Shown in pieces: positions 8,313 to 35,127 of a DNA stretch of 36,183 bases. Position 1 is the stretch's first letter; each line of letters starts with the position of its first letter. Location of the stretch: IMG/VR virus record IMGVR_UViG_2551306525_000009, one strand, 5' to 3'. This DNA comes from a virus (lineage: Duplodnaviria > Heunggongvirae > Uroviricota > Caudoviricetes). The notes below the pieces were generated by a model. It did no database searches and was not told the origin of the DNA. It worked only from the letters and a program-made list of their open reading frames with translations. Made by a program: the position numbers and the translations under genes.

Positions 8313-9198
8313 AGTAAACAAGGCTGGTAACGCCGTTCAGCGTTCCGGCGATAAAATGACCGGAGAGCTGAAAATTGGCACGGTGAATGCGCTGCGAATT
8401 TTCAATGATGCCTTCGGTCTTATTTTCCGTCGTTCAGAAGATTTTCTTCATTTCATTCCGACGGCTGAAGGACAAGGCGAAAACGGTGATATCGGCCCAT
8501 TAAGGCCATTCGCTATAAATCTGAGAACAGGTGCTATATCTGTCAGCCACGGGGCCAAAATTGAAGGAGGTCTAGCTATTGGAGCTACTGATAACGCACT
8601 GGGTGAAAACTCCATTGTTCTGGGAGATAACGACACCGGATTTAGGCAAGATGGAGATGGTATTATTAGCTTCTATTCAAATGGTTCGCGCATCGGACAT
8701 ATTGATGAGTTAGGGTTACATATTTATAAAGATATTGAATCTAATGGCAGCAATTTTAGATTAAAAGGTAATTACCGCCACCACATTACATTCGCCAACG
8801 AAGACGGAAGTATTCGTATGTTTTTGTGGAAAGATAAAGATGGTGATGGTGTTCATATTAATAATGGTTCAAGCGGTGGCGGTGATTTCGTTTTTAAAAC
8901 AGATGGGGGATTTGCGCTGGGAAGTGGTGCGCAAGTTGCGTCTAATGGCGATATTTATGGTTCAGTGTGGGAAAACAACTGGTTAAGCACATGGCTGCAT
9001 AATCATGTCGTTCGGGATATTCGTCTTGGCAGCATTGAATATAAAAACGTATGGCGCGACTCCGGCTTTGGCGATGCGTCAGGTTATGTTTTAACAGCCG
9101 CAATTAACAGCAATGCGGATGATATTGTCGACACTGTTGCCAGAAGGCCAATTCAGAAATTGATTGGGGGAATATGGTATAACGTGGGGAGTGTTTAA
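8302..9198 (+). CDS. alternative tail fibre C-terminal cassette (Sv'-like), no own start codon in the current orientation
   Basis: frame open through left gix site; begins LGLQETVNK..., same junction as H (LGLQETVNQ); C-terminus [19 protein letters not shown] parallels the H C-terminus. Confidence 0.75.
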
Positions 9199-27596: not shown

Positions 27597-27627
27597 GGGA
27601 TTCTGAAATCCCGTTTTTGCCTGTTTT
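27597..27627. repeat. repeat unit 1: GGGATTctgaAATCCCGTTTTTGCCTGTTTT (internal 6-bp palindrome), between parM start and A stop
   Basis: read directly; second near-identical copy 74 bp away. Confidence 0.6.
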
Positions 27628-30463
27628 ATGCGCGCTTCATATATCGCGGCGCGTTTTTTTGCTCATTTATGGGATTTGTGAATCCCGTTTCTGTCTGTTT
27701 TTTGTTTCCACTGGTCAGGCCACCCCGCAGCAGGTCTGCTTTGCGGCGGGCGCGTTCAGTGGTTTCACTGATTCTCTGTGCGTGCTCTGCGTCGCGGATG
27801 GCGCGCAGCATGTCAGAAAGCACGGTAACGGGTGTTTTCATGGTGTTCTGGTCCTGCTGAAGTGTGGATGCCAGGCGTGCGGCGGCTTCAGGGTCTGATG
27901 CCCCCAGCTGTGCCAGATAGCTGGCGACCGGGTTATGGCGGATCTCCGTGCTGCTTACATCGTGATTACGGCTCAGGCGCTGCCAGAGCTGCGTGATTCG
28001 GCTGTCCGGGCGGGTATCCGGTTTGCGTACAATTTCAAATCCCTGCGGTGCAATGATGCTGCCGTCAACGTACAGACTGCCGCCCCGTAACAGGTGCTGC
28101 ATCTGTTGTTCACCGATATGCAGGCCAAGGGATTCAGCAGACTCCCGCCATTCTTTAGCGAGTAATTCGTGGTTATCAGGCAAAGGCCGCTGCTGTTTGC
28201 GGCTCTGTGTCCAGCTCTGCATTTCATCACTGTTGTTTTTTGCCTGTTTGTCACGCAGCGAACGCATCAGCGCCCGGCGTTCGTGCCGTTTCAGTGAGTG
28301 CAGCCATTCGTTCACTTCAACACCGTCAGGGATCTGCGGCCACGGTGCTGGCCGTTCTTCCGGCTGTTCTGTCCCGTTGTTGTCCGTTTCCTGTACACGG
28401 GGACAGTTATTGCCACGAGTCCAAGGGGCGGCAGGGCCGCCCTGAAGGTCAAAACCATTTTCGCGGGCGCTGTCTTCCGCTTCCGGTTTACGTCTTACCA
28501 GCTTCCAGTTATCCGGATGCGTGCACACACGGGAGGATTCCCCGATGAGTGGTGACCAGATCCCGTAAATCTGTACGCTCTGTTCGCCGTAATCGTTCAG
28601 CTCATCGGCGAGGTCGTAGGCGGTGCGAATCAGGTAGTCCTTGCGTGGAACAAGTACGCCGCCCTGTTTCTCTATATAGGTGGCAAAACATCCGGCATCA
28701 GCGGCAGCGAGTACCGCATCCATTGCGTCATCCTTCAGCCGTTGCGGGCCTTCCGGGTTGCGTGCCATCTGGCTGGCAAGGCGGCGGAGTTCACGCCACA
28801 CCTGACGGGAGGGGATGCCAAAGAACTGGAACTGGCGGACCCGGTGAAGGCGCGCCCAGCCGATGGCGCGCTCCACGCTCTCGGCCATTGATTTTCCGGT
28901 TTCGTGGTCAACGCGTGGTTTGCCCGTTTTCGGGTCGATGCCATCCACGGCGCGGCTGTCCAGGTTCTTTCCGATGTAGGTGGCGATGTAGCTGGTTGGC
29001 GTGCCTTTTGAGCCGTCTACATACTCCGCCTTAAAGCGCGGAGTAATATCATCACCCAGCTCGTGACGATCTTCCTGAATGGCAATATCGCGGGTGTGGG
29101 ACACAATGGTGTCGATTTCTTCCGGATGGGCAAAGACCATCATATGCCAGTGTACGGTGCCGTCATGGTGAGGCTCCACCGTGCGGATGCCATACCAGCG
29201 CAGGCCGTCGCGGTTCAGTTTTTTGCGGACCGCCGCAAAAAACGTGTTAACCAGGTAGTCGCTGGAGTCGCGCATGGTGGCCCCGTTCCATTTGGGGTTC
29301 GGATGACCGTTCTCCGTTGTTGCGTGGTATTTTGACGGGCAGGTGACAGTCAGAAACACCGCTTTGTCACCACGGGCTTCGGCCAGAAGTTCCAGCCCCT
29401 TCATGGTGGCCATCATTTCTGCCTTACGGTGAACCGGGTTACTTACTCCCGCGTAATACACTGTCTCGAGATCAATCGTGAACCCGTCTTCGTTTTCCAG
29501 CATGAAACTTTTCAGGAAATCGCGTGTTTTCTCGCGCTGTGCGCGAAACTCGCTTAACGCGTCCTGGCTCAGATAAGGCGATGTTTTTCTGGAAACCAGA
29601 CAGGCGGCGCGGAGTTGTTCTTCTCTCCACTCGCAACGTAACAGCCACAGTTTGCGTTTCCACCAGTCCGCACAGGTCAGGCGAAGGATTGCGCCCGGCA
29701 GCAGTTCCGTATCCGGTTCGCTCTTGTTCAGGGCTTCGTAATGTGGCGGCATGATGTGCAGGCGTAATGCGATACGAGCCAGCATCCGGTAAGCCTTCAA
29801 CATTACATCCATGGTCAGCTCGCCATCTCTGGCACCAAAGCCATCGCAGAGTGTTTCGAAGGTGCTGCTGAACATCGCCGCGGTCATGGTGGCCAGCGTC
29901 TGTATCTGGTGCTTGTTGAGCTGCGGCAGGTAAAGCAAATCGTCCAGGCGTTCGCGCCCGGCAAGGGAGCGATAACCCGGTGTCAGCCAGCGTCCGTCAG
30001 TGCGATCCAGACGTTCGAATATTTTGCGCAGGGGTCCGCGTGCATAGCGTTCCGCCTGCCAGCTCTTTTTACCTTTCTGGCGATCGGCTTCCTGTTTTTT
30101 GCGCAGGAAAGAGAGGTGGCGGCTCAGTGGTTCACGCAGATAAACAGGTAGTGCCTTTAGTGTGGCAAAGGCACGGGCTACCGGGTCTTGTTCTGTTGCC
30201 CGGCGCTTACTGATGATGCTCTGTGCCAGCTTTTCACGCTGTCCGGCTTCCTCAAGGGATGCCATGAGTTTTTTACCCATGGCGGATTGTGCGAAAAAGG
30301 CTTCTTCCTTCGCTTCCTGTTCTTCCTGTGCCCTTTTGTCCGCCTCAAGGTAGTAACGGATGGCGCGTTGCAGGTCGGTTTCAGTTTCCTGCCTGCGCTC
30401 CGTAAATCTGGCCGGATCAATGGCTGGCCGTGGTTCATTCCAGCTCCATGCAAACTCGCTCAT
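27626..30463 (-). CDS. A: replication initiation protein A (rolling-circle initiator, P2 gpA family)
   Basis: TVTCPSKYH, VEPHHDGTVHWHMMVF and YIATYIGKN active-site blocks as in P2/186 gpA; start either ATG 30463 (ATGA-coupled) or GTG 30490. Confidence 0.85.
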   Translation of the reverse strand: MSEFAWSWNEPRPAIDPARFTERRQETETDLQRAIRYYLEADKRAQEEQEAKEEAFFAQSAMGKKLMASLEEAGQREKLAQSIISKRRATEQDPVARAFATLKALPVYLREPLSRHLSFLRKKQEADRQKGKKSWQAERYARGPLRKIFERLDRTDGRWLTPGYRSLAGRERLDDLLYLPQLNKHQIQTLATMTAAMFSSTFETLCDGFGARDGELTMDVMLKAYRMLARIALRLHIMPPHYEALNKSEPDTELLPGAILRLTCADWWKRKLWLLRCEWREEQLRAACLVSRKTSPYLSQDALSEFRAQREKTRDFLKSFMLENEDGFTIDLETVYYAGVSNPVHRKAEMMATMKGLELLAEARGDKAVFLTVTCPSKYHATTENGHPNPKWNGATMRDSSDYLVNTFFAAVRKKLNRDGLRWYGIRTVEPHHDGTVHWHMMVFAHPEEIDTIVSHTRDIAIQEDRHELGDDITPRFKAEYVDGSKGTPTSYIATYIGKNLDSRAVDGIDPKTGKPRVDHETGKSMAESVERAIGWARLHRVRQFQFFGIPSRQVWRELRRLASQMARNPEGPQRLKDDAMDAVLAAADAGCFATYIEKQGGVLVPRKDYLIRTAYDLADELNDYGEQSVQIYGIWSPLIGESSRVCTHPDNWKLVRRKPEAEDSARENGFDLQGGPAAPWTRGNNCPRVQETDNNGTEQPEERPAPWPQIPDGVEVNEWLHSLKRHERRALMRSLRDKQAKNNSDEMQSWTQSRKQQRPLPDNHELLAKEWRESAESLGLHIGEQQMQHLLRGGSLYVDGSIIAPQGFEIVRKPDTRPDSRITQLWQRLSRNHDVSSTEIRHNPVASYLAQLGASDPEAAARLASTLQQDQNTMKTPVTVLSDMLRAIRDAEHAQRISETTERARRKADLLRGGLTSGNKKQTETGFTNPINEQKNAPRYMKRA
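27671..27701. repeat. repeat unit 2: GGGATTtgtgAATCCCGTTTCTGTCTGTTTT, inside the 3' coding end of gene A
   Basis: read directly; candidate parC-like centromere/operator or part of the replication origin. Confidence 0.6.
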
Positions 30464-30849
30464 GGCTGGTATCCCGTCACGCGCTGCCACTCCTGCGAGA
30501 AGATGGCGGAAAGGCGGTTAAATTCAGCGGTGTATTCACTCAGCGAGGCACACCCGCCAGCAGTGCGATGCGCCAGCATTGCCGCGAATACGGAGGCCGG
30601 GGAGTCGTAATACGCCAGCAGTGATTCGCCGTGTGGTGTCAGGCAGTGCAACGCCAGCCCGTGTGGTGTGAAGTCCACGCGGTAGCAGTCGTCTACTGTG
30701 AAATAAAGGGTGTCCGCATTCTCCGGTTTTGTAGTGCGTGCTCTGTTGTCACGACCACGGATGTAAAGATCAAATAATCCCTGAAGAACGGGAGCCAGAC
30801 GGGTGTCCTGTGTGCGCACCCATCTTGTGAAGTCATGAGCGTCAATCAT
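30460..30849 (-). CDS. hypothetical protein, 129 aa, stop overlapping A start
   Basis: ORF translationally coupled to A. Confidence 0.5.
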   Translation of the reverse strand: MIDAHDFTRWVRTQDTRLAPVLQGLFDLYIRGRDNRARTTKPENADTLYFTVDDCYRVDFTPHGLALHCLTPHGESLLAYYDSPASVFAAMLAHRTAGGCASLSEYTAEFNRLSAIFSQEWQRVTGYQP

Positions 30850-30921
30850 GCTGCAATTCTCTTTACTACAGATGTGCGAAGGCCTCCCGCCGCAAGGTGC
30901 AGGAAAGGCCCGGAACAGGAA

Positions 30922-31152
30922 TTAATGGAGTTTGTTTTGCTGCTGGATGAGCTGCTGAAGCTCGCGCAGATCATCCGCCAGATAGCTGAAAACAGCGGAT
31001 GAATAGAGGTTTGAAAGTTCGCAGCTACGCTCATGCAGCATATTGATGTGCATGATTTTAGCGACGCGGAATGCGCGGGAAAGTCTGCGGTTGATTTCAG
31101 TCTGGATGTGACGACGCTCCGCGATAGCGCGGTGCTGTTTGCGGTTTGCCAT
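30922..31152 (-). CDS. hypothetical basic small protein, 76 aa
   Basis: ORF with possible GAGG RBS; Arg/Lys-rich N-terminus. Confidence 0.4.
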   Translation of the reverse strand: MANRKQHRAIAERRHIQTEINRRLSRAFRVAKIMHINMLHERSCELSNLYSSAVFSYLADDLRELQQLIQQQNKLH

Positions 31153-31162
31153 GGTGTGGCCT

Positions 31163-31366
31163 CGTGTATAGTAAGTTTTGAAAACTCACCATCCAGAGGT
31201 GGAAAACTCGGGGTGGTGAGACGTACAGGGTTTCCACAACCGGCTATACACGAACCCGGCCCGACCGAAGTCGGCCCCATACGCCCCACCATAATTCTGA
31301 CGCGAAAAAGACGTGGCGATACGGTACGCACAAAAAAACCGCTGGCGCGGTTGTGCGCGTGTATAG
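31163..31366 (-). ncRNA. candidate cis-regulatory RNA region: 9-mer CGTGTATAG at 31163 and 31358 with its complement CTATACACG at 31244
   Basis: three copies read directly, allowing mutually exclusive pairings; located in the 5' UTR of the 76-aa ORF within a 367-bp non-coding gap. Confidence 0.3.
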
Positions 31367-31491
31367 TCAGCGGGGTGGAAATCCCGGCACCCGTTTTATG
31401 AGGTGCAGCGGAAATGTAACCTGACTGATTGCGGCATGGCAAGCGGTTTTTTTGTGAGAACGGCATACTAAAAAATCCTGATGCTGCTCCG

Positions 31492-31516
31492 GCCAGCGGT
31501 TTCCACTGGCCGGGTT
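31492..31516 (-). terminator. hairpin 3 nt after the SPFH gene stop (CCGGCCAG-cggtttcca-CTGGCCGG)
   Basis: 8-bp GC-rich stem read directly; T-tract on the minus strand only further downstream, so terminator assignment is tentative. Confidence 0.4.
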
Positions 31517-31519
31517 TAA

Positions 31520-32350
31520 TTACTTCACCGGAACAAACGGAACAGCGGTATTACTGGTCATGTATTGCGGCAGCGTGCCGTTCCATTTGTTGATAGCTTC
31601 CAGCTCCATAACGCCGGGGTTCTGGCGCAGAGCTTCACCGCGCAAACGAATGGCGTCGGCTTCAGCCTGGGCTTTTGTGCGAATGGCATCAGCCTGTCCG
31701 GCTGCTTCTGCGCGTAGCATGTTGGCTTCTGCTTCGCGCTGCTTGACTTCCTGTTCGCGTTGCAGAGTTTTCTGGTTTGCCGTGACTTTGGCATTAATGC
31801 TGTCGATAACGGTTGGTGGGTATTCCGGTTTACCGACATAAGAGAGGCTCATTACCTGAATGCCGATAGGTGTCATTTCTGCCTGAATGTCTTTAAGTGC
31901 TGAATCCAGCAGTTCAGACTTGCCACCGTCGATAAATTTATCGGTGGTCATTTTACTGGCCAGTCGGTTGAGTGCGTCGGCGATCTTCTGGCGCAGGTCA
32001 GTGTCGGTAATGTCATCCACGCCTTTGCGGTAGGTCTGAAACACTGTAGTAACTTTGGATGGATCAACCTTGTAGGCCACACCGATGTGATAGCCGATGG
32101 TTGTGCCGTCACTCATCTGAAAGCTGAACGGCTCATCGTAGGTCTTCATTTGTTTGAAGGTTGGGAAGATGTAAACCTCTGTATTCCAGCCTGTCCAGTA
32201 GCGGCCAACGCCAACCACTTCACCGACGCCTTTGTCGTCGCCCAGTTTGTTGACTTTGATGCCCACATTACCTGGCTCAACGCGATCGCAACCAACCAGC
32301 AGGATGGCAGCAAAAAGCGGGAGAATCTGAAAGAGTTTGAATCTCTTCAT
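31520..32350 (-). CDS. SPFH/band-7 (stomatin/HflK/C-like) lipoprotein
   Basis: lipobox LLVGC after signal peptide; SPFH-like core then Ala/Glu/Arg-rich coiled-coil tail (EADAIRLRGEALRQNPGVMELEAINKW), assigned by sequence character. Confidence 0.65.
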   Translation of the reverse strand: MKRFKLFQILPLFAAILLVGCDRVEPGNVGIKVNKLGDDKGVGEVVGVGRYWTGWNTEVYIFPTFKQMKTYDEPFSFQMSDGTTIGYHIGVAYKVDPSKVTTVFQTYRKGVDDITDTDLRQKIADALNRLASKMTTDKFIDGGKSELLDSALKDIQAEMTPIGIQVMSLSYVGKPEYPPTVIDSINAKVTANQKTLQREQEVKQREAEANMLRAEAAGQADAIRTKAQAEADAIRLRGEALRQNPGVMELEAINKWNGTLPQYMTSNTAVPFVPVK

Positions 32351-34729: not shown

Positions 34730-34824
34730 GTGATAATCTCCCTGTTTGGGGTATTTCTTGCGACGGATGCCCCAAATCAAACTCATTTGTATAAACATTA
34801 ATACAGACGTTGGAGAATTGCAAC
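34730..34824. promoter_or_regulatory. divergent early/repressor promoter-operator region (Pe/Pc) between cox and C
   Basis: 95-bp AT-rich intergenic region between divergent regulators; contains imperfect inverted repeat TTGGGGTAT...ATGCCCCAA. Confidence 0.5.
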
Positions 34825-35127
34825 ATGCGTATGACTATTGGAGAGCGCATAAAAATCATGCGTGAAAGCGAGAGACTTACTAGCCTCCCGGATACAGCAA
34901 AAATGCTTGGTTTAAACCGTGATGCTCTGTGGAGATATGAAAGCGGTAAAACTATCCCTAATGCTGAAGTAATTGAGCAAATACTAAACAACCCCAGATT
35001 TGAGAAATATGCGTTGTGGTTTATGACTGGAAAAATTGCGCCTGAATCCGGGCAGATAGCTCCGGCTCTCGCACACTATGGGCAAGAACCAACGGATTTA
35101 CCCCCATCCGAAAGGAAAATTGGTTAA
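34825..35127 (+). CDS. C: immunity repressor C
   Basis: WFMTGKIAPESGQIAPALAHYGQ near-identical to the P2 C C-terminal region (from memory); GGAG RBS. Confidence 0.85.
   Translation: MRMTIGERIKIMRESERLTSLPDTAKMLGLNRDALWRYESGKTIPNAEVIEQILNNPRFEKYALWFMTGKIAPESGQIAPALAHYGQEPTDLPPSERKIG

Follow-up and report, generated by a model that had tools for sequence, protein, structure and literature searches.

The c4 RNA of the P1/P7 immI region is the founding member of the Rfam C4 family and controls icd-ant. In P1 c4, a segment termed b' occludes a ribosome binding site (RBS), a second segment, a', binds upstream, and RNase P processes the C4 RNA at a GGW motif (PMC5320573). The immunity region of the satellite P4 is laid out as PLE – seqA leader – CI RNA/seqB – seqC – eta – epsilon – ... 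– alpha. The P4 CI RNA causes transcription termination (PMC4825925), and in both P1 and P4 the C4/CI RNA is excised from the transcript and acts in trans (PMC5320573, PMC4825925). A third system is that of Gifsy-1, where read-through transcripts of IsrK, considered a structural homologue of P4 seqA, carry a translationally controlled antirepressor gene, with a processed RNA, STnc1160, downstream; IsrK in trans activates translation, and a CI-like role of the downstream RNA could not be confirmed (PMC4825925). Only for Gifsy-1 is IsrK known to bind Hfq, to be partly read through at its terminator and to activate the antirepressor in trans (PMC4825925).

Here we analyse a 36,183-bp stretch of DNA, hereafter the window, that represents a P88-like (Xuanwuvirus, P2-family) prophage integrated adjacent to pheL/pheA. 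Its gene set includes a C-type repressor (the C-like HTH repressor at 34810..35127), Cox, an integrase and gpA. We focus on a 367-bp gap flanked by a 76-aa ORF (30922..31152, minus strand) and an SPFH/Band-7 lipoprotein gene (31520..32350, minus), and conclude that this gap very probably encodes an RNA immunity module of the P1 c4/P4 CI type. In the literature searched we found no description of such a module in P88 or Xuanwuvirus. The original prediction, made from the sequence of the window, had described the gap as non-coding. This holds in so far as RefSeq annotates no CDS or other feature within it, but the gap is not empty, since it holds genes for two RNAs, isrK and C4. The GenBank/RefSeq record of P88 places a plus-strand 'hypothetical protein' over C4 and isrK (L001 6363-6551, about 31210-31400 of the window), which is probably a false gene prediction. 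The query stretch, which extends into parts of both flanking genes, has a relative in 1,509 of 5,426 complete Escherichia coli genomes, and the gap of E. coli ES4 is identical to that of the window over the 751 bp compared. In ES4, gpA is annotated as frameshifted (L002 1788-4614); the window gpA is intact.

The gap is marked by short repeats. As predicted, the 9-mer CGTGTATAG lies at 31163 and 31358 and its exact complement CTATACACG between them at 31244, with no further copies of either in the window, so that the C4 loop has no other 9-mer target there. When the gap was shuffled with its dinucleotides preserved, a 9-mer in direct–inverted–direct arrangement (W..rc(W)..W) came up in just 6 of 20,000 shuffles. 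A duplicated motif had also been proposed; GGTGGAAA indeed has copies at 31198 and 31374, with the complement TTTCCAC lying at 31231, within the middle element. This second set of three belongs to the same device as the 9-mers and forms its second determinant. We call the two determinants a and b, with upstream targets a1 and b1, antisense segments a' and b', and downstream targets a2 and b2.

An Rfam search of the whole window at gathering thresholds returned exactly two RNAs, isrK and C4, both on the minus strand and both in the gap; within 31100-31560 no other RNA family or cis-regulatory motif was found up to E = 1. The isrK match (RF01394, 31406..31332) scores 63.5 bits against a gathering score of 50 and covers model positions 1-77 of 77. 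From its 5' end it has a pair of hairpins and then a single-stranded linker, and its 3' end is formed by an intrinsic terminator (stem 31352..31337 followed by a U-run). The sole sigma-70-like site in 30800-31700 is a promoter-like site on the minus strand at 31442..31413 (-35 TTGCCA at 31442..31437, an 18-nt spacer, -10 TACATT at 31418..31413), which ends 7 nt ahead of the isrK 5' end. The score above gathering, the promoter-like site 5' and the terminator 3' all agree with assignment to RF01394. This 75-nt IsrK-type leader is the counterpart of the P4 seqA leader and of the P1 a1b1 element. It displays both upstream targets: a1 (UUUCCAC on the RNA, 31375..31381), the complement of a', in the hairpin-2 loop, and b1 (CUAUACACG on the RNA, 31358..31366) in the single-stranded linker, complementary to the C4 loop. 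The b':b1 duplex has 9 bp and a predicted energy of -11.6 kcal/mol.

The C4 match (RF01695, 31296..31209, minus) scores 77.3 bits against a gathering score of 45 and is likewise full length (model positions 1-87 of 87). A long closing stem encloses two internal hairpins, leaving an apical loop and a junction exposed, and a GGU motif is visible near 31290, at the 5' end of the closing stem. Folded alone, C4 takes the family consensus as its minimum free energy (MFE) structure (-44.1 kcal/mol, z = -3.4). The middle 9-mer is the b' segment (CGUGUAUAG, 31244..31252), situated in the 12-nt apical loop GUUCGUGUAUAG, and a' (GUGGAAA, 31231..31237) occupies the single-stranded junction. The full-length score, the fold, the covarying targets of a' and b' on the RNA's own transcript and the position of b2 on an RBS all agree with assignment to RF01695.

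Downstream of C4 the targets are met again. The loop of a hairpin at 31185..31220 (minus; inverted repeat I4, 14-nt arms, 86%) carries a2 (UUUUCCAC, 31206..31199). The 5' arm of this hairpin shares nucleotides with the 3' arm of the stem that closes C4, and after the hairpin comes a UUUU run (UUUUC). Beyond this, the RNA segment CUAUACACGAGG (31160..31171, minus) comprises b2 (CUAUACACG, 31171..31163) followed by AGG, and the resulting GAGG Shine-Dalgarno sequence stands 7 nt ahead of the AUG of the 76-aa ORF at 31152. The downstream pairing had been predicted to abut this RBS on the minus strand, and it goes further, overlapping the Shine-Dalgarno itself: the b':b2 duplex (11 bp, -14.4 kcal/mol) takes in the GAG of GAGG. 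The middle 9-mer had further been thought able to pair with either flanking copy in mutually exclusive fashion, and MFE folds show both alternatives. In the 267-nt leader a1/b1 pair with a'/b' in cis (z = -3.5), and in the fragment from C4 to the AUG b' pairs with b2 and a' with a2, also in cis (z = -4.2).

The closest likeness is to P4, which gives the same two Rfam matches in the same order on the same strand, isrK at 8692..8615 and C4 (the CI RNA) at 8507..8420. In the P4 sequence GUGAGAA stands in the hairpin-2 loop (a1) and UUCACAGG in the linker (b1); CCUGUGAA lies in the CI loop, followed by UUCUCAC; GUGAGAA returns (a2) in the loop of a hairpin after CI that shares an arm with the CI/C4 closing stem, as here; and UUCACAGGAGG is the eta Shine-Dalgarno (b2), the end of eta overlapping the start of epsilon. 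The placement of a1, b1, b', a', a2 and b2 thus matches that in the window, and in both an epsilon-type protein and a replication gene lie downstream. The differences are that P4 is a satellite, whereas the window holds a full P2-like phage that has a C repressor, Cox and integrase of its own; that the replication gene is a P2-type gpA in the window and the alpha primase in P4; that IsrK and C4 are separated by 35 nt in the window and by about 107 nt in P4; and that P4 has eta at the target site. The window has no eta, and therefore the epsilon homologue itself occupies this site.

P1 c4 resembles the module in its two short determinants, in having b' over an RBS and a' upstream, in its duplicate upstream targets, in the regulation of an antirepressor, and in heteroimmunity that a few changed bases create. 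P1 differs in its regulated genes (icd-ant1/2, with an unrelated antirepressor), in being a plasmid prophage and in the additional repression of the operon by C1; moreover, the upstream element of the window scores as isrK and not as Rfam c4-a1b1. The Gifsy-1 arrangement IsrK – orf45/STnc1160 – anrP shares an IsrK with its own promoter and terminator, a downstream RNA, an antirepressor gene, pairing in cis between the central part of IsrK and that RNA, and a pair of AUGs 12 nt apart at the C4-like start. By analogy the window may also share the leaky IsrK terminator, the processed RNA and the translational control. Gifsy-1 differs in being lambdoid, in its unrelated antirepressor AnrP and in a 45-codon ORF coupled to anrP; in the window the equivalent frame is 148 codons long, and at b2 the regulated gene is provided with a Shine-Dalgarno of its own.

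Relatives were collected by searching viral contigs for a DNA pattern built from the conserved core of C4 (120 loci) and by a protein scan using the 76-aa ORF in genome contigs (three loci). Among 109 distinct C4 loci, carrying 55 different loops, the locus's own C4 loop has an exact complement of at least 8 nt downstream in 84, upstream in 61 and on both sides in 57, while foreign loops reach an 8-nt complement in ∼1% of trials. The complements sit at fixed offsets. At other C4 loci the downstream genes encode Rha, ORF6N, AntA or Bro-N/P22_AR_C domains, or are eta-like; this Pfam check was limited to clear representative loci, because a first-ORF heuristic took spurious ORFs in many. The Rha, ORF6N, AntA and Bro-N/P22_AR_C domain families are commonly annotated as phage antirepressors. 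Some viral contigs carry tandem isrK–C4 modules about 660-870 bp apart (L016 4574-5421; L073 7050-7951), and in L073 the two copies have different loop sequences.

The original prediction proposed covariation of the pairings across relatives as a test, and this covariation is very strong: more than 99% of alignment cells are paired, and both partners have changed in 10–11 of 16 pairs. This was seen in a P88-like subgroup of 21 leaders with a mean identity of 89%, whose variation is concentrated in the six blocks a1, b1, b', a', a2 and b2. For the upstream pairings (a1:a' plus b1:b') 99.7% of cells are paired and 11 of 16 pairs are altered on both sides, against 27-52% paired in slid controls; for the downstream pairings (b':b2 plus a':a2) the figures are 99.4%, 10 of 16, and 39-49%. 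The 21 leaders were chosen by exact b1:b' complementarity, so the b1:b' helix is biased in this alignment; the other three helices played no part in the selection. Among these, a1:a' (35-42 with 180-186) is 99.3% paired and a':a2 100% paired, each with four of seven pairs altered on both sides. A set of 25 sequences defined by constant flanking blocks only gives the same pairing picture, the deviations in the four added sequences being G-U pairs and a single mismatch. Across relatives, each determinant co-varies in all three of its copies.

The structures that present these segments are preserved as well. Taken together, the internal stems of the two RNAs are 99.9% paired; in the 21 relatives those of IsrK are 100% paired and those of C4 99.7-100%, with compensatory and G-U changes. 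Where just one side of a stem has changed, G-U pairing accommodates the change only if the minus-strand RNA is read, and this settles both the strand and the RNA level. At least six a-types and at least 11 b-types occur in mixed combinations, and they reassort freely while the neighbouring proteins stay nearly constant; P88, for instance, has the a-type of the window and a different b-type. The predicted duplex energy of a C4 with its own a2/b2 is -24 kcal/mol; it is -9.3 kcal/mol if both the a and b types are foreign.

The 76-aa ORF matches the Derepression protein family of Pfam (PF25738) with 29.5 bits against a cutoff of 27, and it is labelled 'derepression protein' in P88 and RefSeq. A pairwise BLASTP comparison with P4 epsilon gives 29% identity over 66 aa (E = 1e-8). 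We regard it as a putative antirepressor of the P4 epsilon family, an assignment that draws on this 29% identity and on a Pfam score barely over the cutoff. The original prediction had a small ORF and then gene A downstream of the gap. Both are present, but a 129-aa ORF (30460..30849, minus; phrog_3237) lies between them. The 76-aa ORF ends 72 nt ahead of this ORF, without overlap, and the stop of the 129-aa ORF overlaps the gene A ATG (ATGA, 30460-30463). Gene A encodes a P2-type replication endonuclease, gpA (27626..30463, minus; Pfam PF05840, E = 1.8e-130), with its ATG at 30463 within a maximal ORF that opens at a GTG at 30490; it appears to be the last gene of the operon. In P88-like phages a ParM-type segregation protein and a partition/stability protein adjoin gpA on its downstream side (L001 1453-2728; L002 436-1711), which hints at plasmid-like maintenance functions in a P2-family prophage.

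A further frame of 148 codons (30846-31292, minus) starts at an AUG in the 5' arm of C4 (31292), spans the entire epsilon-like gene in a different frame and terminates within the AUGA at the start of the 129-aa ORF (30846-30849). It is open in all 19 distinct epsilon-like genes, where codon usage would lead one to expect 1.42 stops per sequence; synonymous resampling leaves it open in 7.4% of trials, and it is retained in three of four indel-bearing lineages. These figures are only suggestive of an analogue of P4 kil/eta or of Gifsy-1 orf45.

On the 5' side, homology among relatives of the RNA cassette starts at an A-tract just 5' of the -35 (about 31456-31470). From the A-tract and -35 onward the sequence is conserved across all relatives despite differing upstream contexts, at least four of which are unrelated, for example the SPFH gene or an Ead/Ea22-like gene (L003, L015, L023, L039, L091, L123). 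The SPFH gene is thus variable cargo beside a conserved module. A hairpin with a U-rich run at 31489..31513 (minus; CCGGCCAG..CUGGCCGG, inverted repeat I7) is likely the terminator of this upstream cargo gene and would lie outside the switch. Its loop contains a fourth copy of the a motif, GGTTTCCAC at 31498-31506, with GUGGAAACC identical to the a' segment of C4. We considered this copy as a part of the device and rejected it: P88 and other relatives of the same a-type have GUGAAAA there, nor does the site follow the a-type in relatives of other a-types, so that the copy is coincidental. A 28-nt inverted repeat, 82% complementary (I1, 31319-31346 versus 31439-31466), has one arm in the promoter A-tract/-35 region and the other running from the 3' half of the IsrK terminator into what follows it; no function was found for it. 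P88 was recovered following mitomycin C treatment. No LexA-box-like site was found near the module, and LexA/SOS control of it was rejected, the sole CTGT-N8-ACAG lying inside gene A and occurring at chance frequency.

How the module would work can be proposed by homology with P1, P4 and Gifsy-1, in steps that go beyond the complementarity and covariation described above. Some transcripts may read through the IsrK terminator, and from these RNase P would release C4 by cutting at the GGU of its closing stem. C4 would then pair with a2/b2 of new transcripts and block translation of the antirepressor-like gene, and polarity together with lost translational coupling would lower expression of the 129-aa ORF and gene A. 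The expected outcome is that the prophage is kept quiet and that phages of the same a/b type are excluded. The upstream a1/b1 segments would compete for the C4 segments, either in cis on the full-length transcript or in trans as short IsrK, and this competition would set the threshold for derepression. As the cis foldings are mutually exclusive, IsrK probably competes for C4 or acts as its decoy, whether in cis or in trans, a role that would fit the activating effect of IsrK in Gifsy-1. The balance between repression and activation may differ from that in P1 and P4, given the trans activation by Gifsy-1 IsrK and the unconfirmed CI-like role of its downstream RNA. The original prediction had named control of replication-gene expression. 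Gene A does belong to the presumed operon, but the gene directly controlled would be the putative epsilon-like antirepressor; control of gene A we infer from gene order and operon layout and from the ATGA overlaps alone.

With the same RNA parts, the main output might instead be premature termination in the style of P4, at the a2 hairpin and U-run or at downstream Rho sites, rather than occlusion of the RBS in the style of P1. We hold this as a tentative possibility. The layout is closest to that of P4, including the epsilon homologue and replication gene downstream, and the a2 hairpin is followed by UUUUC; termination is moreover what CI RNA causes in P4 (PMC4825925). Against it, b2 overlaps the GAGG 7 nt from the AUG, just as in the RBSs of P1 icd and P4 eta, and the U-run after the a2 hairpin has just 4 U and was not called by the terminator scan. 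Both outputs can go together, since Rho polarity follows when translation is blocked.

It is unlikely that the gap is purely a cis switch or attenuator, in which the leader toggles between b':b1/a':a1 and b':b2/a':a2 without a processed trans-acting RNA. The MFE folds of the 267-nt leader and of the C4-to-AUG fragment do give the alternative cis pairings, one arm of the a2 hairpin is also used by the closing stem of C4, UUUU follows this hairpin, and 'structure A/B' of Gifsy-1 is such a cis switch (PMC4825925). Yet C4 has conserved a stable, independent fold closed by a tRNA-like stem, of a kind excised and trans-acting in P1 and P4, the terminator of IsrK would yield a separate RNA, and a diversified a/b code is what trans immunity specificity predicts. 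Cis switching is probably one layer of the same system and not an alternative to it. The suggestion of an RNA switch or attenuator in the original prediction is accordingly right as to the RNA level, the minus strand and the pairing at the RBS, but the element is neither a ligand riboswitch nor a leader-peptide attenuator, because the alternative pairings belong to two known small RNA genes and, in 31100-31560, no cis-regulatory Rfam family was matched up to E = 1.

A protein operator array, the other option first offered, is highly improbable: three or four copies of two short motifs near a promoter and upstream of a replication gene could be DNA sites for a sequence-specific repressor or initiator, and a co-evolving binding protein would also make repeated sites co-vary, but every copy has a defined position (loop, junction or linker) in two Rfam RNA structures, the copies invariably follow the orientation target–antisense–target, where Watson-Crick pairing is lost the minus-strand RNA mostly has G-U, the a/b types reassort beside nearly constant proteins, and the homologous P1 and P4 elements are experimentally RNA-RNA sites (PMC5320573, PMC4825925).

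We thus return to the P1 c4/P4 CI-type immunity module as our reading of the gap. RNA immunity of this kind is well known, both RNAs are recognised by Rfam at curated thresholds, and the window is a clear but ordinary case of it in a P2-like prophage; the current understanding of the mechanism is unchanged. Mildly new are a full P2-like phage with a P4-style module, an epsilon homologue at the target site and gpA downstream, the combinatorial reassortment of a and b specificity types, and the long open reading frame through C4. An unannotated 367-bp gap becomes two RNA genes with defined targets, and a module best known from the satellite P4 is found in a P2-like phage beside a putative epsilon-type antirepressor.

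A wider and more speculative reading is that P88-like phages may run their own P4-style RNA immunity circuit, gating an epsilon-type antirepressor and gpA. If true, it would comprise a two-part specificity code in which all three copies of each determinant change together. The 148-codon frame may then be a kil/eta- or orf45-like 'ribosome transit' frame, which would couple translation to gpA while C4 is unfolded or unprocessed. P4 satellites and helper-type phages could also cross-regulate one another, through matching C4/target codes and through epsilon proteins. For the P2-family prophages themselves, the module offers a testable route for derepression and for mutual phage exclusion, and the a/b code a simple sequence-based predictor of RNA-level heteroimmunity.
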